A stretch of 64,000 nt of DNA from Candidatus Magasanikiibacteriota bacterium (lineage in GTDB: Bacteria > Patescibacteriota > Patescibacteriia > Magasanikbacterales > GWA2-37-8), in assembly GCA_041678665.1 (NCBI GenBank), contig JBAYNU010000001.1, positions 80,996-144,995 on the forward strand, in the 5' to 3' direction. Made by a program: the position numbers and the translations under genes. How positions within the stretch are numbered: the stretch's first letter is position 1; every line of letters begins with the position of its first letter. Shown here piece by piece: positions 12,628-53,320 of the stretch. Under the pieces are notes generated by a model that worked only from the letters and a program-made list of their open reading frames with translations, did not search any database and was not told where the DNA came from.

Positions 12628-12702
12628 TGTCATCCTGAGGCGTAGCCGAAGGATCCCTTGAATCGTGAACGGAAGGGATTCTTCGCTCCGCTCAGAATGA
12701 CA
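12628..12702. repeat. TGTCAT-type palindromic repeat (type I arms) between tpiA and the M16 peptidase
   Basis: TGTCATCCTGAGGCGTAGCCGAAGGATCCC ... GGAAGGGATTCTTCGCTCCGCTCAGAATGACA. Confidence 0.8.
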
Positions 12703-12706
12703 ATTG

Positions 12707-14038
12707 TTAATTGAGTAATTTAATGATCTCATTTTCTTTTGCGCTACCAATTACCGCCAGGCGCGCCTCATTCCAAACAAACAGTTTCTTGGCTAATTTC
12801 AAAACATCGCCAGTGGTAACTTTTTTAATTTTTTGGAGCACCTGTTCGTAGGTTTCAATTTTTTTACTAAACCAAAATTGTTTGGCAAACCAATCGGCCA
12901 CGGCATTGCTTTCTTCCATTCCCAAAACCATCCGACCGGAAAAATTGGATTTGGCTTCGTGTAACTCTTTATCCGAAACTGGCTTAGTGGCTATCTTGTT
13001 CAGCTCTTCTTTTATTACTGCCACCGCCTCATCAAGACGAGCCGGATCCAAACCAGCCTGAATCTGCGCTGTGCCTACATCGCGAAAACTATTGCCCCCA
13101 GTATGAATCATATAGCACAGACCCCGTTTATTGCGCACTTCTTCAAATAGACGCGAACTCATCGTCCCTCCCAAAATATTTAATAAAACCGATTGGGCAT
13201 AACGGTCGGGATGGTTGTGTGGTAGACCATGAAAACCCAAAATTAGATGGGTTTGATCGAGCGGCTTTTCTTTGTTTATTATTCTTTTTTTAAGCGCGCA
13301 ATTTTGTGGCCAAGAAAATTTAGCAAATTTCTTATAATCAAATCTTACTCTGTCATCCCCATGAAAGTGGGGATCTGCCCTGTTGAGTCGCTGATCCCGA
13401 TTTTCATCGGGATGACAACGCTCAAAATATTTCAAATTTTTTGGTAATTTCTTTTTATCCACATCGCCTGCTACCACCAACACCATATTACTCGGCTGAT
13501 AAGCCGCCTTGTAATAATTTACTAAATCTATGCGAGTTAGAGCACGAACACTACTTACGGTACCACCAACATCTATCCCCAAAGTATTACCGCCAAAAAC
13601 TACTTCATCAAACAACGAATCAATCTTCATGGTAGGATTATCATCGTACATACGCAGCTCCTCGACAATCACGCCTTTTTCTTTTTCAATTTCTGATTCA
13701 TTCATTAAAGAATTAAACAACATATCCGACAGCATATCAAAAGCCAACTCACTCTGTGCCCCATCAATTTTAATATAATAACCAGTGTGATCTTTGGAAG
13801 TGTAAGCATTATATTCCGCGCCGGCCGCGTCAAGCTCGCGCGAAATTGCCTGCGTATTAGGTCGACGCTTAGTGCCCTTGAACATCATATGCTCGATAAA
13901 ATGTGAGCCACCGGAAAGCGCCGGCATTTCATAACGCGAACCAACCGGAAACAAAGCCAGCACGGTAGTTGCTTTCGTGCCGGCCACAGGAACGGTAATT
14001 AGACTGATGCCATTTTTTAACTTACTTAACTGATACAT
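12707..14038 (-). CDS. M16 (pitrilysin/insulinase) family zinc peptidase
   Basis: 443 aa. N-terminal HFIEHMMFKGT (HxxEH zinc motif) and the two-domain M16 layout. Contains one in-frame repeat insertion (see 13351..13417). Confidence 0.8.
   Translation of the reverse strand: MYQLSKLKNGISLITVPVAGTKATTVLALFPVGSRYEMPALSGGSHFIEHMMFKGTKRRPNTQAISRELDAAGAEYNAYTSKDHTGYYIKIDGAQSELAFDMLSDMLFNSLMNESEIEKEKGVIVEELRMYDDNPTMKIDSLFDEVVFGGNTLGIDVGGTVSSVRALTRIDLVNYYKAAYQPSNMVLVVAGDVDKKKLPKNLKYFERCHPDENRDQRLNRADPHFHGDDRVRFDYKKFAKFSWPQNCALKKRIINKEKPLDQTHLILGFHGLPHNHPDRYAQSVLLNILGGTMSSRLFEEVRNKRGLCYMIHTGGNSFRDVGTAQIQAGLDPARLDEAVAVIKEELNKIATKPVSDKELHEAKSNFSGRMVLGMEESNAVADWFAKQFWFSKKIETYEQVLQKIKKVTTGDVLKLAKKLFVWNEARLAVIGSAKENEIIKLLN
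13351..13417. repeat. TGTCAT-type repeat, type II (GAAA-tetraloop hairpin arms), in-frame inside the M16 peptidase
   Basis: TGTCATCCCCATGAAAGTGGGGATC ... GATCCCGATTTTCATCGGGATGACA. Translated within the ORF as ...CHPDENRDQRLNRADPHFHGDDR... Confidence 0.75.
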
Positions 14039-14040
14039 AA

Positions 14041-14568
14041 TTATTGTTCTTGTGGATGTGCTTTGGCATAAGCAAAAAATCCCGCTTGTAATTGATCAAA
14101 CTTTAATTGATCTGATTCTGATAAAACAATCTTAAGCTCAATTCCTTGCGTTCTTTGATCAATAGTATATTTACCCTTACCGATTAATTCATCGGCTCTT
14201 GCCAGAAGCAATTTATATTCTTCATCAATCTCTGTTTCGTTTTTCGAATCTCTGGCTTCATCTTTTGATAATATATTGCCGTGCTCACGATAATACTCTT
14301 CTGTATATTCTGACGGAATCCTACCACCCTTGCCAATGAATCTCTTGAGTGAATTAATATATAATGATACCACATCTTTGTGTGGCTGAAATAATTTATC
14401 TCCACGATTAAAATCATTTTGTTTAAAAATAAATACACCATCTTCTTTTACATATAAAACGTCCACATTCCAATCATGCTCAATTTTTTCAATAGTATCC
14501 CTTATTTCTTGTGTGGCTTCTTCGACAGTGTGTTCGTATTCCCTCCTCGATGAAGATTTCTCTGACAT
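14041..14568 (-). CDS. Hypothetical acidic protein
   Basis: 175-aa ORF packed tightly between glyQS and the M16 peptidase. No recognisable motif. Confidence 0.45.
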   Translation of the reverse strand: MSEKSSSRREYEHTVEEATQEIRDTIEKIEHDWNVDVLYVKEDGVFIFKQNDFNRGDKLFQPHKDVVSLYINSLKRFIGKGGRIPSEYTEEYYREHGNILSKDEARDSKNETEIDEEYKLLLARADELIGKGKYTIDQRTQGIELKIVLSESDQLKFDQLQAGFFAYAKAHPQEQ

Positions 14569-14578
14569 ATAAATATAA

Positions 14579-15952
14579 TTAAAAATTAAACCGCTCCTTT
14601 AAATAATTATTCAATTCTTTAATCTCTACTCGCTCTTGTTTCATCGTGTCGCGATCGCGCACGGTAACTTTTTTGTCCTCCAAAGAATCAAAATCCACAG
14701 TCACACAAAACGGCGTGCCAATTTCGTCTTGCCGACGATAGCGCTTTCCAATGCTTTGAGTTTCGTCATAATCCACACTGTAAGCAGTGCGTAAACCCGC
14801 GGCCAAATCTTTGGCCACCGCAGATAATTGCTCTTTTTTGGATAAGGGTAAAACCGCCACTTGAATAGGCGCTAAATGTTTGGGAAATTTCATGACAATT
14901 CGCTTTTCGCTTTCGCCTTCTTCGGTGGTCGGCGCTTCTTCTTCGTGATATGCCTCAAATAGCGCCACTAGTAGCATGCGATCAATACCAAACGTTGGCT
15001 CAATCACATGAGGCAAAAACTTTTCTCCCGACACCGGATCGGTATAATGCAAATCTTGACCACTCACTTTTTCATGACGCGACAAATCAAAATCCGTGCG
15101 ATAAGCAATACCGTGGAGTTCGCCTAGGCCAAACGGATACTTATATTCAATGTCCACGGTGCGCTTGCTATAATGCGCGCGCTCGCCATCAGGAATCTCA
15201 TGCCAAACCAAATTATCCATATTCACCTGCATCGCATCTTTCCACCAACGTTTAATTTCGCCGAGCCACATCTCAAACACTTCTTCCCAATCTTTTGGAT
15301 TAATAAAATATTCTAATTCTCCAATCTCAAACTCGCGCGTGCGAAAAATAAAATTACCGGGAGTAATTTCATTACGAAAACATTTCCCAATCTGCGCAAT
15401 CCCAAACGGCAAACGACGACGCGTAACATTGAGAATATTTTTGAAATTCACGAACATACCGCCGGCAGTTTCGGGACGCAAATAAACGGTGGATAAATTA
15501 TCTTCGGTGATGCCAATAAAGGTTTTAAACATTAAATTGAAGTTCTTCGGGGCAGTAAGAGCGCCGTCACAATCAGGGCAATTTATTTCTTCGATAGTTT
15601 TTACCTCGTCTTTCTTGTGATCGGGCTCAATTCCGGTAGCGGACAACAAATGGTCAACTCGAAAACGATGGTGGCACGATTTGCATTCTACTAGTGCATC
15701 GGAAAAATTCTGCAGGTGTCCGCTCGCCTCCCACACACGCGGATTCATAATAATAGCGCTATCTAGTGGAACCATGTCTTCACGCTCTTGGACAAAAAAC
15801 TTCCACCAGAGTGACTTGATATTTTGTTTGAGCAAATGCCCCAGCGGGCCATAATCCCAACTATTCGCTAATCCTCCATAAATTTCCGACCCCGGGAAAA
15901 TAAACCCTCTCCTTTTACAAAGTGATACAATTGTTTCGATATCTACGGACAT
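14579..15952 (-). CDS. glyQS: Glycine--tRNA ligase (dimeric class II type)
   Basis: 457 aa. N-terminal FIFPGSEIYGGLANSWDYGPLG and the class II motifs match the alpha2 GlyRS found in Gram-positives and archaea. Confidence 0.9.
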   Translation of the reverse strand: MSVDIETIVSLCKRRGFIFPGSEIYGGLANSWDYGPLGHLLKQNIKSLWWKFFVQEREDMVPLDSAIIMNPRVWEASGHLQNFSDALVECKSCHHRFRVDHLLSATGIEPDHKKDEVKTIEEINCPDCDGALTAPKNFNLMFKTFIGITEDNLSTVYLRPETAGGMFVNFKNILNVTRRRLPFGIAQIGKCFRNEITPGNFIFRTREFEIGELEYFINPKDWEEVFEMWLGEIKRWWKDAMQVNMDNLVWHEIPDGERAHYSKRTVDIEYKYPFGLGELHGIAYRTDFDLSRHEKVSGQDLHYTDPVSGEKFLPHVIEPTFGIDRMLLVALFEAYHEEEAPTTEEGESEKRIVMKFPKHLAPIQVAVLPLSKKEQLSAVAKDLAAGLRTAYSVDYDETQSIGKRYRRQDEIGTPFCVTVDFDSLEDKKVTVRDRDTMKQERVEIKELNNYLKERFNF

Positions 15953-18916: not shown

Positions 18917-19930
18917 TTACTTCGTCGCCATAATACTTCTTTTATAATTTTCTAAATTCTCCAGCGCAATTCCTGTACCTTTGGCTACACACAATTGTGG
19001 CTCTTCGGCTATGTAAGTAGGTACTCCAGTAGCTTGGGCAATCAATTCATTAATATTACGCAGTTGAGCAGAACCCCCAGTAACAATAATACCCTTATCC
19101 ATCACGTCCGCCGAAAGCTCCGGCGGAGTCTGATTCAGGACTTCCTTTACAGCATCAATAAGTAAACCCAAATCATGCTGTAAAGCTTCGGTAATGTCAT
19201 CAGAGTTAACAGTAATAATCCGCGGTAAACCGGTTACCATATCACGACCCTTAATCTCTACCGTTAATGGTTTATCCATATATAAGACGGAACCAACTTT
19301 AATCTTTATCTCTTCGGCGCTGCGCTCGCCCAAAGCCACATTGTATTTATGACGAACATAATCAACAATAGATTGATCAAACTTATTGCCACCAACTCGA
19401 ACTGATCCCCAAGCCACGATACCACCCAAAGAAATAACTGCTATTTCAGCCTTACCGCCACCGATATCTATCACCAAATGTCCAGCGGCAGCCCCAATCG
19501 GAATATCCGCCCCAATCGCGGCTACGATCGGTTGCTTAATAATATAAGCCGCACGCGCGCCAGCCGCCAAGGTAGCATCAATCACCGCTCTTCTTTCTGT
19601 GGAAGTAACTCCGGCGGGCACGGCAATCATCACTTCTGGCCTAAACAAGCGCATGCCGCCTAAGGCTTTATTAATAAAGTACCTAAGCATCGCTTCGGTA
19701 ATATGATAGTTAGCAATTACCCCCTCTTTTACCGGACGTTGAGCGATAATCGTATCGGGAGTGCGGCCAATCATATCCTTGGCTTCAAAACCAACCGCCA
19801 ATACCTTACCATCAGACTTAGACAAGGCTACCACGCTGGGTTCGTTGACTATGATTCCTTTCTTGGAAACATAAACTAAAACGTTATTTGATCCCAGATC
19901 AATTCCAATTTTTTTGACAAACATAAACAA
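18917..19930 (-). CDS. mreB: Rod-shape-determining actin homologue MreB
   Basis: IGIDLGSNNVLVYV, the actin-fold phosphate loops and IVTGGSAQL match MreB. The ORF-track start is a TTG; the likely true start is the ATG at 19922..19924 (MFVKKIGIDLG). Confidence 0.9.
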   Translation of the reverse strand: MFMFVKKIGIDLGSNNVLVYVSKKGIIVNEPSVVALSKSDGKVLAVGFEAKDMIGRTPDTIIAQRPVKEGVIANYHITEAMLRYFINKALGGMRLFRPEVMIAVPAGVTSTERRAVIDATLAAGARAAYIIKQPIVAAIGADIPIGAAAGHLVIDIGGGKAEIAVISLGGIVAWGSVRVGGNKFDQSIVDYVRHKYNVALGERSAEEIKIKVGSVLYMDKPLTVEIKGRDMVTGLPRIITVNSDDITEALQHDLGLLIDAVKEVLNQTPPELSADVMDKGIIVTGGSAQLRNINELIAQATGVPTYIAEEPQLCVAKGTGIALENLENYKRSIMATK

Positions 19931-19999
19931 TCGTTAAAACATAAAAACATTAAAACATAAAAACAAACCACCTATTTACTGCCCTTATGTTCTAGCGTT
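19931..19999. repeat. Leader repeat with tandem ATGTTTT(A/T)A units immediately upstream of mreB
   Basis: The minus-strand reading ends ...tgtttttatgttttaatgtttttatgttttaacgattgtttATG. It shares aatattaaaac and the (ATGTTTTNA)n block with 34453..34527. Confidence 0.55.
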
Positions 20000-33216: not shown

Positions 33217-34452
33217 CTACTCGTATCTTAGCGCCTCAATCGGATCAAGCTTGGCGGCGCGTTTGGCCGGGGAAATTCCAAAAATCAAACCTACACCGAC
33301 CGACACTAACACCCCCATCACAATTGAAGAAAATGAAACAGAAAAATCCCAGCTATAACCCATGCCCTGCGCCACTTTGGCCACGGTGTAAGAAATTAAA
33401 ATGCCCAAAATAATTCCAATCACCCCACCGATAGAGGTAATCATGATTGACTCTACCAAAAATTGCGAAGTAATATTTTTATTCTTCGCCCCCACTGCTT
33501 TGCGTAATCCTATTTCACGCGTGCGTTCCTGCACAGCCGCAAGCATAATATTCATAATGCCAATTCCGCCCACAATAAGAGCGATCGCCGCTACCGCCGC
33601 CAGAAACATCTTGAGGGCATTGGTTATAGAAGTTATGGCATCCAAACTCTGTGCCATTGAACGCACCGAAAAATCATCATCTTTGGCATTTTCAATCTTA
33701 TGTCTTTCGCGTAAAATAACCTTGGCATCTTCCATGGCCGAATTAACATTGTCGCCAGTGTCAACTTTAAGCCGCGCAAAACTAATATGGTTTATTCCAA
33801 GTAATAACTTTTGTGCCGTATTAAGTGGCACAAAAATTTGGTCATCCTGATTTTGCATACCACTACTACCACGCGCCTTCATCACTCCGACAATATTAAA
33901 AACGGTTTTTTTAATTTTAATATCCTGTCCCAGGGGATTCTGATCGCTAAATAAGTTTTTAGCTACCGTACTACCAATTACCGCTACTCGCGCTACACTC
34001 CTATCCTCATCCTCGGTAAAAAATCTTCCTACTCCAATAGACGCGTCTTCCACATCCGGATATTGACCGGATACACCAGTAAAATTGGTATCGGTTTTTT
34101 GATCGCCCCAGGTGATGGTATCAGTCCCTTTTACATAACCGGTCGCCGCCAAAATATGCGGGTTATTTTTTGTCACCGCCACTATATCGCTTTCTTTAAG
34201 AGTGGTAATTACAATCCCCATAACCGAAGCTGGGGGGCCTTTTTCATCCGAAGCACCGGGTAAAATACCAATAAGATTGGAACCCATGCTTTTCACTTGA
34301 TTAATAATCAAACTCTGCGCCCCTGCTCCCACTGACATCACAATAATCACAGCCATTACGCCAATAATAATTCCGAGCATCGTTAAAAATGATCGAACCT
34401 TATTGCGCCCGATTACATGCCAGACACTGTGAATTTCTTGAAGTAAGTTCAT
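33217..34452 (-). CDS. ABC transporter permease, MacB/FtsX family (first permease)
   Basis: 411 aa, same architecture as the downstream paralogue. Confidence 0.8.
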   Translation of the reverse strand: MNLLQEIHSVWHVIGRNKVRSFLTMLGIIIGVMAVIIVMSVGAGAQSLIINQVKSMGSNLIGILPGASDEKGPPASVMGIVITTLKESDIVAVTKNNPHILAATGYVKGTDTITWGDQKTDTNFTGVSGQYPDVEDASIGVGRFFTEDEDRSVARVAVIGSTVAKNLFSDQNPLGQDIKIKKTVFNIVGVMKARGSSGMQNQDDQIFVPLNTAQKLLLGINHISFARLKVDTGDNVNSAMEDAKVILRERHKIENAKDDDFSVRSMAQSLDAITSITNALKMFLAAVAAIALIVGGIGIMNIMLAAVQERTREIGLRKAVGAKNKNITSQFLVESIMITSIGGVIGIILGILISYTVAKVAQGMGYSWDFSVSFSSIVMGVLVSVGVGLIFGISPAKRAAKLDPIEALRYE

Positions 34453-34527
34453 GAAAACATTAAAACATCAAAACATTAAAACAATTTCTATTTGTTTTAA
34501 TATTCTTGTGTTCTCGTGCTTTAACGA
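34453..34527. repeat. Leader repeat with tandem ATGTTTTNA units immediately upstream of the first permease
   Basis: The minus-strand reading ends ...aatattaaaacaaatagaaattgttttaatgttttgatgttttaatgttttcATG. Same family as 19931..19999. Confidence 0.55.
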
Positions 34528-35247
34528 TTATTTCACCAGCTCACTCGCTCCTTTTGCGATTTGTCGATTAATCACCTGCTCATCACTTTCAATCACACCA
34601 TCACGAATACGTAATATTCTTTTGGCATGCTCGGCGGTATAGCGTTCGTGAGTAACCAAAATTATCGTGTGTCCACTTTCATTCAAATCTTGCAAAATTT
34701 TCATCACCGCGAGACCGGATTTGGAATCCAAATTGCCAGTCGGCTCATCGGCAAAAATTACTTTGGGATCGTTCACTAATGCCCGGGCGATCGCCACGCG
34801 CTGTTTTTCACCACCCGAAAGCTGACTAGTGTAATAATTCAACCGATGCTCAAGTCCAACAGAAATTAATGCTCGTTTCGCTTTAAAATTACGCGCAGTT
34901 TCACTGTCACCTGTATAGACTAAAGGTAAAGCCACGTTTTCCATCACCGTGGTCCGTGGCAAAAGATTAAACGCTTGAAACACAAACCCGACTGCCTTGC
35001 TACGCATCTCCGCTAGCTCATCATCAGTGAGTTCGTTTACTTTCTTATCATCAAATAAATACTCGCCACAACTAGGCTTATCCATAAAACTCAAAATATG
35101 CATGAGAGTTGACTTACCTGAACCAGATGGCCCCATAATCGCCACAAATTCACCCTTTTCAATCTTAAAATTCAAATCATGAAGCACGGGTGTTTCCACC
35201 TCTCCGCTCACATAGGTTTTACAGAGATCTTTAATACTAATTAACAT
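34528..35247 (-). CDS. ABC transporter ATP-binding protein (MacB/LolD-like)
   Basis: Walker [11 protein letters not shown]-loop, signature [15 protein letters not shown], Walker [13 protein letters not shown]-loop. Confidence 0.9.
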
Positions 35248-35295
35248 ATTTGGTAAATTGCTAAATTTCTATTTTAAACAATTTAATAATTTATT

Positions 35296-38863: not shown

Positions 38864-40057
38864 CTATTCTACAGTATTTAGAGCTAATTGTCCACACGCC
38901 GCCGCGATGTCTTGGCCCTGGGAGCGGCGAATGGTGGTGGTAAACCCACATTTCATTAGGCGCTTATGCCAGTGGTCGATGGTGGTTTCGCCCACAATGT
39001 CATTCCCGCGCAAGCGGGAATCTGCCATGTCGTTGCGCGGATCCCCGCTTTCGCGGGGATGACAAGTCGCCGGAGTGTTGAGTGGTATCAAATTTATCCT
39101 CACCTTGCCCAACTTACTCGCGAGCTTGATGAGAGCTTTCAAATGTTTCTCGCTATCATTTTCGCCCGGCACAATCGTATACTCCATTCCAATAAACTGC
39201 GTGCGACTGCTAAACCGCTCGTGATATTTTTTACTCCACTCAATCAAAAATTTAAGAAAATCCTTTTGATGCGATGGAATTAATTTTTTGCGTTCTTCTT
39301 CAATTGGATTATGAAGCGAAAGCGCAAACCGCACCGGCGGCCAATCTTTATCCACTACCATTTTTTCCATAACCGTTGGCACACCCACAGTGGACACGGT
39401 AATCTGGCGCGGGCCCATTTCGGTGTATTTTAAAATTATATTCAATGCCGCTTTGACATTTTCATAATTTAAAAGTGGCTCACCCTGACCCATCAGAACG
39501 ATGTTGGAAATTCGCTTGTCATTCTGAGCGGAGCGAGCGAAAGCGAGCGCAGTCGAAGAATCTAAATTGCGTTGCTTATCAGATCCTTCGACTCCATTCG
39601 CCTTCGGCTCATTTCGCTCAGGATGACAGTTTGACAAATATTGTTGCCAAAACCTCACCTGGTCCACAATTTCTTGCATCGTCAAATTACGTTTGAACCC
39701 CATCTTGCCGGTAGCGCAAAACGTGCAACCCATCGGACAACCAACTTGGGTAGAAATACAAATGGTATAGCGTTCGTCTGCTTCTCTGGTTAACTTTTTA
39801 TTTTCACGCCCCATTAGCACTGTTTCAATACAAGCGCCATCACTCAATTCCAACAACACCTTTTTTGTCCCGTCAATCTTACTTATCTGCATAGTTTTTT
39901 CTTTCGCTACCATCCACGGCTCGCCTTTTAATTTTTCCCGCAAATCTTTGGGCAAAGTGGTAATTTCAAAATACGAAGAAACGCCCGGAGTAAACCAAGC
40001 GCGATAAATTTGATCAAGCCGATATTTGGGTTGATTGTCTAAAAGCTGAGATAACAT
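38864..40057 (-). CDS. rlmN: Radical-SAM 23S rRNA/tRNA adenine C2-methyltransferase RlmN, carrying two in-frame repeat insertions
   Basis: GCPMGCTFCATG (CxxxCxxC), LMGQGEPLLNYENV and the C-terminal Cys region match RlmN/Cfr. Two TGTCAT-type repeats (38998..39064, 39517..39628) are translated in-frame. Confidence 0.8.
   Translation of the reverse strand: MLSQLLDNQPKYRLDQIYRAWFTPGVSSYFEITTLPKDLREKLKGEPWMVAKEKTMQISKIDGTKKVLLELSDGACIETVLMGRENKKLTREADERYTICISTQVGCPMGCTFCATGKMGFKRNLTMQEIVDQVRFWQQYLSNCHPERNEPKANGVEGSDKQRNLDSSTALAFARSAQNDKRISNIVLMGQGEPLLNYENVKAALNIILKYTEMGPRQITVSTVGVPTVMEKMVVDKDWPPVRFALSLHNPIEEERKKLIPSHQKDFLKFLIEWSKKYHERFSSRTQFIGMEYTIVPGENDSEKHLKALIKLASKLGKVRINLIPLNTPATCHPRESGDPRNDMADSRLRGNDIVGETTIDHWHKRLMKCGFTTTIRRSQGQDIAAACGQLALNTVE
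38998..39064. repeat. TGTCAT-type repeat, type II arms, in-frame in rlmN
   Basis: TGTCATTCCCGCGCAAGCGGGAATC ... GGATCCCCGCTTTCGCGGGGATGACA, translated as ...CHPRESGDPRNDMADSRLRGND... Confidence 0.8.
39517..39628. repeat. TGTCAT-type repeat, long type I variant, in-frame in rlmN
   Basis: TGTCATTCTGAGCGGAGCGAGCGAAAGCGAGCGCAGTCGAAGAATC ... GATCCTTCGACTCCATTCGCCTTCGGCTCATTTCGCTCAGGATGACA. 112 nt. Translated as ...CHPERNEPKANGVEGSDKQRNLDSSTALAFARSAQNDK... Confidence 0.8.
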
Positions 40058-52426: not shown

Positions 52427-52495
52427 TGTCATTCCCGCGAAAGCGGGAATCTAAAGATTATCTTAAAGGGATTCTCCGCTTCACTCAGAATGACA
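52427..52495. repeat. TGTCAT-type repeat, hybrid (type II left arm, type I right arm), overlapping the 3' end of the rfbD-like gene
   Basis: TGTCATTCCCGCGAAAGCGGGAATC ... GGGATTCTCCGCTTCACTCAGAATGACA. The right arm encodes the C-terminal ...RCHSE-stop of ORF 52481..53320. Confidence 0.8.
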
Positions 52496-53320
52496 ACGCG
52501 TCGCATAATTTTTCATTGCCTCTTCCACTGCCTCCTCAACCGGACGCATCGCTATTCCCAACTTTGGCAGATTAACCGAAGTCATTACATTATTTGATCG
52601 CTTTTTGGCGGCGATGCCTAATTTCACCAAATCCTCTTCTTTTATCCATTCACACTGATGCTGGGAGTCAATATATTTTTCATAAAGCGCGATAATTTGT
52701 TTATGCGTGATTGATCCAGGATTGGTGCAATGAAAAATACCTTCGGCTTTTTTTTCTAATAACGCGCGGAATATCTTAATCATATCCGGCACGACGGTAA
52801 CGCTATTTTCTACGTCTACCACCCGAGAAAATTTGGATAACTTATCTATCAGGTTGCCGGGGAATAATCGATCATCAATCGGCAATCGAATGCGCGCGAC
52901 GGCGACATTGGACAACGTGGACAAAACTAAATCAGCCGCATATTTGGAACGCGTATAAACCGCCGTCGGATTGGCAAAATCATTTTCATCCCACGGACCG
53001 CCATGAGGCGAAGCACCATAAAAAATACAACCTGTACCCATGTGCAATAGGTACACTCCCCGTTTTTGACAAGCGCACGCGATGGTAATCGGCAGTACGG
53101 TGTTACCCTCAATAGTTTCCACCTGATGTGTTTCGCACCAATCGACATTGGGTTTGCCCACCACTCCGGCGGCATTCAACACCACATCGGGTCGATATTC
53201 ATCCAAAAGGGCCAAAACATCCGCCTCAGTTTGAATCTTTTTATCCGCGATAACCGAATCCGGCCACTCCTCATGACATCTTCCGCCCAGCCAACCTTTG
53301 CCGATAATTAAAATTTTCAT
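52481..53320 (-). CDS. rfbD: dTDP-4-dehydrorhamnose reductase-like NAD(P)-dependent sugar reductase/epimerase
   Basis: 279 aa. Short Rossmann N-terminus MKILIIGKGWLGG, catalytic YTRSK (YxxxK), RmlD-like size. Confidence 0.6.
   Translation of the reverse strand: MKILIIGKGWLGGRCHEEWPDSVIADKKIQTEADVLALLDEYRPDVVLNAAGVVGKPNVDWCETHQVETIEGNTVLPITIACACQKRGVYLLHMGTGCIFYGASPHGGPWDENDFANPTAVYTRSKYAADLVLSTLSNVAVARIRLPIDDRLFPGNLIDKLSKFSRVVDVENSVTVVPDMIKIFRALLEKKAEGIFHCTNPGSITHKQIIALYEKYIDSQHQCEWIKEEDLVKLGIAAKKRSNNVMTSVNLPKLGIAMRPVEEAVEEAMKNYATRCHSE

Follow-up and report, generated by a model that had tools for sequence, protein, structure and literature searches.

The stretch of DNA analysed here, which we call the window, comprises 64,000 nucleotides (nt) of a Candidatus Magasanikiibacteriota bacterium (GenBank assembly GCA_041678665.1, contig JBAYNU010000001.1, positions 80,996 to 144,995), a member of the Candidate Phyla Radiation (CPR). 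Within it, the gene for an M16 peptidase contains a 67-nt palindrome that is read through in frame and that belongs to a family of repeats also found between genes. The features of this locus, in window coordinates, are as follows:

12707 to 14038, minus strand: host gene, M16 (pitrilysin-family) zinc peptidase, 443 residues, with Pfam matches to Peptidase_M16 (E 8e-33) and Peptidase_M16_C (E 4e-40)
13351 to 13417, no strand assigned: M16 doublet element, a 67-nt palindrome made of two inverted hairpin arms of 25 nt each and a 17-nt spacer
13351 to 13375, plus strand: arm 1, with head TGTCA, 8-bp stem ATCCCCAT/GTGGGGAT that includes one T.G pair, GAAA as its loop, and the palindrome followed by a C
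13376 to 13392, no strand assigned: 17-nt spacer between the arms
13393 to 13417, minus strand: arm 2, with the minus-strand reading TGTCATCCCGATGAAAATCGGGATC

Structure of the element

On the plus strand the element reads TGTCATCCCCATGAAAGTGGGGATC, followed by the spacer TGCCCTGTTGAGTCGCT and then GATCCCGATTTTCATCGGGATGACA. Apart from 3 mismatches, each arm is the reverse complement of the other (0.00 such matches are expected in shuffled sequence), and the whole element is predicted to fold as one long hairpin, with folding free energies (dG) of -39.6/-40.2 kcal/mol as RNA (z -5.7/-7.7) and -19 to -20 as DNA. Each arm is also predicted to form a smaller DNA hairpin by itself, with dG values of -6.3 for arm 1 and -7.6 for arm 2, and the 8-bp stem of arm 2 (ATCCCGAT/ATCGGGAT) differs from that of arm 1 by a compensated C:G to G:C flip. 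By inspection, G.U wobbles were not confined to one strand of the element: each strand has one wobble and one mismatch. No Rfam family matched at its gathering score anywhere in the window. At E<=1, snoR116 was returned for the element region and STnc240 for positions 3700-4150, but both are chance matches and we rejected the assignment to a known RNA family.

In the minus-strand translation, the element corresponds to residues 208-229 of the peptidase, a stretch of 22 residues (CHPDENRDQRLNRADPHFHGDD) in the protein context FERCHPDENRDQRLNRADPHFHGDDRVRFD; one peptide of the predicted protein that spans the insert is LNRADPHFHGDDR. An earlier sequence-only reading of this DNA had pointed out an in-frame repeat at this position, and the sequence, the arms and the read-through are all as it quoted them. 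The identical protein is recorded from NCBI, JGI and ENA, where it is annotated as a pitrilysin-family protein of a Candidatus Magasanikbacteria metagenome-assembled genome (MAG).

The element is an insertion in a variable loop of the peptidase

An alignment of 17 M16 orthologues places the element in a loop of variable length. The protein is 443 residues long here vs 427-431 in most of its 120 best homologues, and its Pfam M16_C match extends over 199 residues for 179 profile positions, with about 20 extra residues inside the match. The insert is missing from two relatives that are 74% and 70% identical to our protein (P0003 and P0004; 426 residues, with nine residues at the site) and from more than 100 other orthologues. 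Because these orthologues lack it and other members of its repeat family lie in intergenic spacers of the window, we conclude that the segment was inserted and is not ancestral, as the sequence-only reading had supposed.

One relative does carry an insert: the protein P0002, 77% identical to ours and present in two independent assemblies (L001 and L002), contains an 88-nt family member at the same nucleotide, in the same phase and in the same orientation. The two copies differ by many stem substitutions, among them compensated changes, and by a 21-nt (seven-codon) in-frame indel that corresponds to a nested palindrome. This nested palindrome of the L001 copy, GCCATGCCTACCGGCAGGCAGGC, recurs in an arm of a different family member in our window, at 7079-7152. 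At the peptide level only 12 of the 22 insert residues are identical between the two, compared with 77% for the protein as a whole. A metagenome scan for further carriers of the exact junction (K-Y-F-E-x plus TGTCATYCC) recovered the L001 contig only, the other 21 matches being due to chance. In L003, a possible element remnant (..CCCGCGGTGACAAA..) is too short to call.

The host gene is intact and under purifying selection. The HxxEH zinc motif is intact here and invariant in the orthologue alignment, and dN/dS for the comparison with L001 is 0.09. The AlphaFold (AF2) model of the protein has a mean predicted local distance difference test (pLDDT) score of 88.4, and the sole segment that scores below 50 comprises residues 212-230, after a helix at 198-206. 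The solved structure closest to the model is that of the Bacillus halodurans M16B peptidase (3HDI; TM 0.86/0.92). The insert is thus predicted to form a disordered loop that is compatible with the peptidase fold.

The arms belong to the NTS/dRS3/SRM family

The Neisseria Transformation Sequence (NTS), CGTCATTCCCGCGMAVGCGGGAATCYRG, contains dRS3 and represents a wider class termed the 'Ssn-related motif' (SRM), which is found on either side of genes encoding small nucleases of the GIY-YIG type (Ssn, cd10448), whose cleavage of single-stranded DNA (ssDNA) falls beside the hairpin (Chenal et al. 2025, PMC11893778). The same study demonstrated a role for the NTS in transformation, identified the C after the palindrome as a critical base for Ssn binding, called the NTS-ssnA-NTS arrangement IS-like, and found 2% of NTS copies inside genes. 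Our arms have four traits in common with the NTS and the SRM consensus: the head is TGTCAT, the stem measures 8 bp, the loop is of the GNRA type, and the stem is followed by a C. Both M16 arms place the SRM head, (H)GTC(A/T)Y, directly 5′ of the palindrome (TGTCAT plus the 8-bp stem), and both combine a covarying hairpin with the C that follows it. Based on these features, we assign the arms to the published NTS/dRS3/SRM family. The published consensus, HGTCWYN(0-2)YYVSBRHN(0-5)WNVSBRGN(0-2)RNCYNB (Chenal et al. 2025, PMC11893778), is strictly matched in the window only by the two arms of a doublet in rlmN (38998, plus strand, and 39064, minus strand), where 0.03 matches are expected by chance.

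A scan of a genome collection for the doublet architecture found at least 120 loci, spread over most bacterial phyla (Bacteroidota, Acidobacteriota, Proteobacteria, Rickettsiales, Chloroflexota, Nitrospirota, Actinomycetota, many CPR groups and others). We aligned 66 distinct 25-nt arms (alignment A3), in which the TGTCAT head and the ATC tail are invariant and the 8-bp stem covaries: 94.7% of cells are paired, and 61 cells show double changes vs 18 in shuffles. Arm 1 of the M16 element has the geometry of these 66 arms.

A nuclease-bearing relative of the doublet

A sister Magasanikbacteria genome that lacks the M16 insert (L130) holds a complete hairpin-nuclease-hairpin unit. At 14446-14822 of this sequence, the 377-nt unit consists of the hairpin TGTCATCCCCGCGCAGGCGGGGATCCAG, an open reading frame (ORF) for 100 residues, and the identical hairpin in inverted orientation. 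The ORF was assigned by its Pfam GIY-YIG match (PF01541, E 1e-14) and is annotated 'GIY-YIG nuclease family protein'. The unit lies between RND-like and ABC transporter genes, and the orthologous spacer in the window (35248-35295) is 48 nt long and empty. We interpret it as a putative autonomous form with the published SRM-ssn-SRM architecture; set beside it, the 67-nt doublet resembles a unit reduced to its two ends, with no gene between them. A GIY-YIG ORF in L058 was also considered as an SRM-flanked unit and rejected, as it lies amid tRNA-like sequence and has no flanking hairpins.

Close homologues of the L130 GIY-YIG protein are extremely numerous (at least 8000 candidates, including P0241-P0360), and many of them lie on contigs of 0.5-1 kb, as is expected of repeats that break assemblies.

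Recurrent insertion into loops of RlmN and M16

A second gene in the window, encoding the 23S rRNA methyltransferase RlmN, carries two further in-frame members of the family:

38864 to 40057, minus strand: second host gene, 23S rRNA methyltransferase RlmN (radical SAM), 397 residues vs about 345 in insert-free orthologues
38998 to 39064, no strand assigned: RlmN doublet, 67 nt, in frame, CHPRESGDPRNDMADSRLRGND, both arms being exact matches to the SRM consensus
39517 to 39628, no strand assigned: expanded RlmN member, 112 nt with expanded arms, in frame, CHPERNEPKANGVEGSDKQRNLDSSTALAFARSAQND, dG -63.7

The count of three in-frame insertions within 64 kb given by the sequence-only reading (M16, RlmN 38998-39064 and RlmN 39517-39628) is therefore upheld. 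As with the peptidase, purifying selection on rlmN is indicated by a low dN/dS (0.13). The net gain in protein length is smaller than the elements themselves, about +17 residues for M16 relative to L003 and +18/19 for RlmN, implying either that target residues were lost or that the loops shrank later.

RlmN orthologues vary from 335 to 397 residues in length, and two loops explain this variation. We surveyed them by loop extraction, as a strict peptide-signature expression under-counts the inserts, and found recognisable family peptides (CHSERSEES..., VIPAQAGI...RLRGND) in the RlmN loops of at least 12 of 120 CPR homologues. At site 1, the window has the 112-nt family member, L129 has an unrelated small palindrome (CCCCTCCTTACGGAGGAGGGG) and L130 has no evident element. 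At site 2, the window has the 67-nt doublet in phase 0, L130 has a decayed insert, and L129 (gene at 1174-2289, 76% identical) has an 84-nt GAGCG-type member (2072-2155) that lies a few nt upstream and is read in another phase. The M16 loop behaves similarly: in two other CPR orthologues (L132:501-1883 and L133:14-1363) it holds unrelated in-frame palindromes with multiple hairpins (dG -83.5 and -87.8 kcal/mol), which makes it a general hot spot for palindromes. Insertion has thus recurred in this loop and in the two RlmN loops in several CPR lineages, each being struck independently by elements of differing types, phases and positions.

Genuine in-frame doublets also occur in a Parcubacteria tgt-like gene (L015), a Daviesbacteria protein (L043) and a membrane protein (L126). 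A Rickettsiales MAG has an in-frame SRM doublet, NVIPNAQAEGSKDSSPMARNDN, at L012:4082-4143, within a phenylalanyl-tRNA synthetase beta-like (pheT-like) ORF of more than 840 codons, which hints that some Rickettsiales coding palindromes may be SRM-based.

Family members across the window and the filter on coding insertions

We count about 11 family units in the 64 kb, bounded by TGTCATYC...GRATGACA and all predicted to form long hairpins (dG -29 to -66 kcal/mol, z -4.5 to -8). Those outside M16 and RlmN are:

3068 to 3142, no strand assigned: family member, 75 nt, between infC and rpmI
3761 to 4059, plus strand: three solo arms in one orientation, with heads at 3761, 3811 and 4019, downstream of rplT
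7079 to 7152, no strand assigned: family member, 1 nt after the PPDK stop codon
11714 to 11843, no strand assigned: family member, 130 nt, between the TIM stop codon and the start of a glycosyltransferase-4 gene
12628 to 12702, no strand assigned: family member, 75 nt, which takes up the gap from the M16 stop codon to the TIM start codon
52427 to 52495, no strand assigned: hybrid member, 69 nt, with one hairpin arm and one GAGCG-type arm, overlapping the 3′ end of an RmlD-like ORF

The M16-TIM spacer, filled by a 75-nt unit in the window, is only 7 nt long in the sister genome. The hybrid member provides the RmlD-like ORF (52481 to 53320, minus strand) with its last four codons and its stop (..TRCHSE*), a case of C-terminal capture and not of internal insertion.

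Although called genes make up 93% of the window, only 3 of the 11 units lie within real genes (one in M16 and two in RlmN); the remaining units occupy the 7% of non-coding DNA, in spacers of a few nt between cistrons. The same tendency is seen elsewhere: among 128 doublets from the 120 loci listed from other genomes, 13% lie in read-through frames vs 68% of random segments. The family is depleted from coding DNA. Together with the independent strikes on the same loops, these proportions (3 of 11 units, 13% vs 68%) best fit the first of two scenarios offered by the sequence-only reading, namely frequent insertion combined with selection against frame-breaking copies.

Its second scenario, a repeat whose length and phase are adapted to be tolerated, is not needed. 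Two of the three frames per strand are open in the element because of its G+C-rich hairpin composition, and the sole obligatory stop is the TGA in ATGACA, which closes the third; moreover, all three head phases (CH.., VIP.. and SFP..) are present in other genomes. All four intragenic copies, including that of L001, share one phase, in which TGT CAT encodes Cys-His, and their lengths (67, 67, 112 and 88 nt) are all 1 modulo 3; both regularities fit the selection filter, as does the in-frame 21-nt indel that separates the window and L001 copies. The complete intergenic copies measure 75, 130, 75, 69 and 74 nt.

Several of these units touch other annotations. The public gene call for ribosomal protein L35 (3127-3351, plus strand) starts inside the repeat at 3068-3142, which puts MPQDDKIIY in front of MSKLKTHK...; translation probably begins at the downstream Met, and the extension is then an annotation artefact. 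A public call for a 91-residue protein (3749-4024, minus strand) overlies the three solo arms, has no Pfam match and is probably spurious. Between these solo arms, downstream of rplT, lies an unrelated stable hairpin at 3913-3996 (RNA dG -50.6 kcal/mol, z -9.4) with no Rfam match.

A probable mobile palindrome retained in frame

In our judgement, the M16 segment is probably a non-autonomous mobile palindromic element, consisting of two inverted SRM hairpins and a short spacer and resembling MITEs (miniature transposable elements with inverted repeats) and REPINs, that inserted into the peptidase gene and was retained in frame. It would represent the ends of a hairpin-nuclease-hairpin unit from which the nuclease gene is missing, and it would have entered the M16 gene in or before the common ancestor of the window genome and its L001 relative. 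Its survival there can be attributed to the combination of a permissive loop, a stop-free phase (TGT CAT ...) and a net change in length that kept the downstream frame. The element would be translated as a disordered loop of 22 residues, presumably without a function of its own, in a peptidase that is still under purifying selection. We infer that single-stranded DNA hairpins are the form in which it moves, aided by an Ssn-type GIY-YIG nuclease whose gene lies in another part of the genome. More generally, the data agree with palindromes that insert often and are then strongly filtered: where 93% of the DNA is coding, the copies that survive are those in tiny spacers and those that hit a permissive loop, are read in an open phase and leave the frame unchanged in net length.

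Several observations weigh against this explanation or complicate it. Searches of the 64-kb window and of a further 9.6 kb beyond its start (Pfam on called genes, and tblastn) gave no Ssn or GIY-YIG gene. No target-site duplication is seen at the seven complete copies in the window, and 256 flanks from other genomes reveal no clear target motif, only a weak preference for T at -1. Both M16 arms fail the strict SRM consensus, with A/T rather than S/B/R at inner stem positions, and for this reason we file the M16 copy as a divergent family variant and not as a canonical SRM. For SRM units in general, transposition is a proposal: ssDNA cleavage and an effect on transformation were shown, and an IS-like nature was only suggested (Chenal et al. 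2025, PMC11893778). Translation of the insert is predicted from the open frame. Finally, the insert is 74% identical in nucleotide sequence between the window and L001, with a proportion of synonymous differences (pS) of 0.39 vs 0.68 for the gene. This low synonymous divergence, along with the compensated stem changes, means that the insert is not simply decaying junk: continuing constraint, gene conversion or re-insertion is required.

Re-insertion would be the answer if the window and L001 copies were not orthologous but had arisen from two independent insertions of one subfamily at one preferred nucleotide. Independent insertions a few nt apart did occur in these lineages at RlmN site 2, and the arms of the two M16 copies differ at many stem positions in addition to the 21-nt nested insertion. 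Furthermore, when spacers are compared directly, together with enough adjoining arm bases to make 21 nt, the M16 element is nearly as close to the paralogous rlmN copy (15/21) as to the 'orthologous' L001 copy (17/21). We nevertheless consider this account unlikely, as the two insertions agree in nucleotide position, phase and orientation while the 256 flanks hold no target motif that might have guided them, and a single gain on the branch leading to the window and L001 is most parsimonious (dN 0.166 between these two, vs 0.177 and 0.202 to L003).

Constraint would be the answer if the element were kept by selection, be it because Ssn binds or cleaves it and the recombination of incoming DNA is thereby modulated (as by the NTS in Neisseria), because its mRNA structure stabilises the transcript or makes translation slower, or because the peptide loop is useful. 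In both arms the local hairpin remains perfect, since bases that differ from arm to arm, or from the window copy to that of L001, do so in a compensated manner, and at synonymous sites the insert has diverged less than the gene. Such a role would also suit intergenic copies that sit exactly between cistrons, as REP/BIME elements do, and the transformation role demonstrated for the NTS (Chenal et al. 2025, PMC11893778). However, the peptide is poorly conserved (12/22 residues, against 77% for the protein) and predicted to be disordered, close relatives do without the insert, and the same M16 loop has accepted unrelated palindromes. Gene conversion among copies or recent re-insertion would give an equal pattern, and the comparison, based on only two orthologous copies, fits selection on the DNA hairpin, gene conversion and same-site re-insertion alike. 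A retained function strikes us as quite improbable.

Two further explanations are hardly credible. That the segment is an ancestral, lineage-specific peptidase loop which merely resembles the repeat might be suggested by the varying loop length across the M16 family, but not by a near-perfect palindrome of 67 nt with the exact termini of the family (0.00 chance matches expected), which matches a copy in a different gene at 74% identity from end to end and is missing from more than 100 orthologues; the orthologue alignment, the refuting test that the sequence-only reading had set, rejects this account. That the repeat was mis-joined into the gene during assembly, or that the gene is a pseudogene, is conceivable insofar as metagenome assemblies can be broken or wrongly joined at repeats (the short contigs mentioned above carry many of the Ssn homologues), but the identical protein comes from three sources, the orthologous insertion was assembled independently in L001 and L002, and the frame is open throughout, with the low dN/dS and an intact fold model.

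Relation to known palindromic elements

The proposed mobile palindrome resembles the Rickettsia palindromic elements (RPEs; Ogata et al. 2000), which are 105-146 bp long and have protein-coding counterparts in Wolbachia (Ogata 2005). RPEs lie between genes and in frame in conserved housekeeping genes, an RPE-containing guanylate kinase is translated and active, and RPE peptides are thought to sit at places compatible with the fold. By description, both are palindromic repeats forming long stem-loops, inter- and intragenic, in a host with a reduced genome. The likeness extends to the multiple copies (about 11 units per 64 kb), to their in-frame presence in intact conserved genes (M16, and RlmN twice) at fold-compatible loops, and, for the peptidase, to a disordered loop in an otherwise confident model; here too the hosts are under purifying selection and several genes in a small region have been struck. 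Unlike RPEs, our element is only 67 nt long, has a CPR host, and is built from two hairpins of a pan-bacterial SRM family.

With NTS, dRS3 and SRM copies the element shares the GTCAT head, the ATTCCC-N-GGGAAT-type stem and the C after the stem, and a Magasanikbacteria relative has an SRM-ssn-SRM unit. The differences are the divergent M16 arms, the lack of an ssn gene in the 74 kb examined here, and the in-frame coding insertions, doublets and CPR hosts, which are not discussed in the published description (Chenal et al. 2025, PMC11893778); nor does that paper mention RPEs, MITEs or in-frame insertion.

REPINs and BIMEs are likewise inverted doublets of short hairpins, mostly extragenic, and likewise have a small hairpin-flanked gene as the presumed mobiliser acting on single-stranded hairpins. 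In the REPIN/RAYT (IS200/IS605-like) system, however, that gene encodes a Y1 HUH transposase, whereas in our relative it encodes a GIY-YIG nuclease, and the repeat head is GTAG in REPINs vs TGTCAT here. No Y1 transposase was found among the called genes of the window. To our knowledge, REPINs have not been reported as in-frame coding insertions. Bacterial MITEs with open frames (the 107-bp form of Correia/NEMIS, and ERIC/IRU) are closer in this respect, being small non-autonomous palindromes fused in frame to host ORFs. Those MITEs have terminal inverted repeats, TA target duplications and DDE-transposase parents; our element has inverted termini but no duplication.

Both the family (NTS/dRS3/SRM) and the phenomenon (in-frame palindromes in Rickettsia) are already known. 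What goes beyond the RPE and Ssn sources is the CPR host, the gene-less doublet, the presence of this family in frame within coding sequence, and the loops that act as hot spots; our search of the literature on CPR or Patescibacteria with in-frame palindromes or MITEs returned nothing relevant. These results extend protein-coding palindromes from Rickettsiales to the CPR, and they join the in-frame Rickettsia elements with the NTS/SRM-Ssn hairpin system, two bodies of literature that, as far as we compared them, do not cite each other.

A wider synthesis can be offered tentatively, and we hold it as a possibility rather than an expectation. A mobile unit found throughout bacteria, with a GIY-YIG ssDNA nuclease gene between two hairpins, may have SRM doublets as its MITE-like form without the gene, and they and other palindromes may routinely colonise permissive loops of essential proteins in gene-dense reduced genomes such as those of CPR bacteria and Rickettsiales. 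On this view, a general process shapes CPR proteins and the protein-coding palindromes of Rickettsia would be a single instance of it, and intragenic copies would be doubly constrained, by the open frame and by a DNA hairpin kept by compensatory change or gene conversion.

In practical terms, length variation and odd peptides in CPR housekeeping proteins (CHSERSEES, VIPAKAGI...RLRGND) are largely repeat-derived, and masking them is advisable before alignment, phylogenetic work or structure prediction. As recurrent hot spots, the RlmN and M16 loops amount to a natural map of insertion-tolerant positions, and translated copies with complementary stems offer a test bed for the upkeep of hairpins by selection, gene conversion or re-insertion.

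Other observations in the window

ARAGORN predicted a tRNA-Asn(att) at 34263-34339 on the minus strand, inside an FtsX-like ORF (33217 to 34452); Rfam does not support this call, which is probably false. Repeats of the TTAAATTCCAAATTCAAAATAACAAATA type, AT-rich and both direct and inverted, lie at 329-415, 1266-1372 and 1854-1937, flanking smpB and the tmRNA gene (1941-2341). Repeats of the AAAACATAAAAACATTAAAACA type, partly in inverted pairs, occupy two intergenic regions, at 19926-19973 and 34436-34533.

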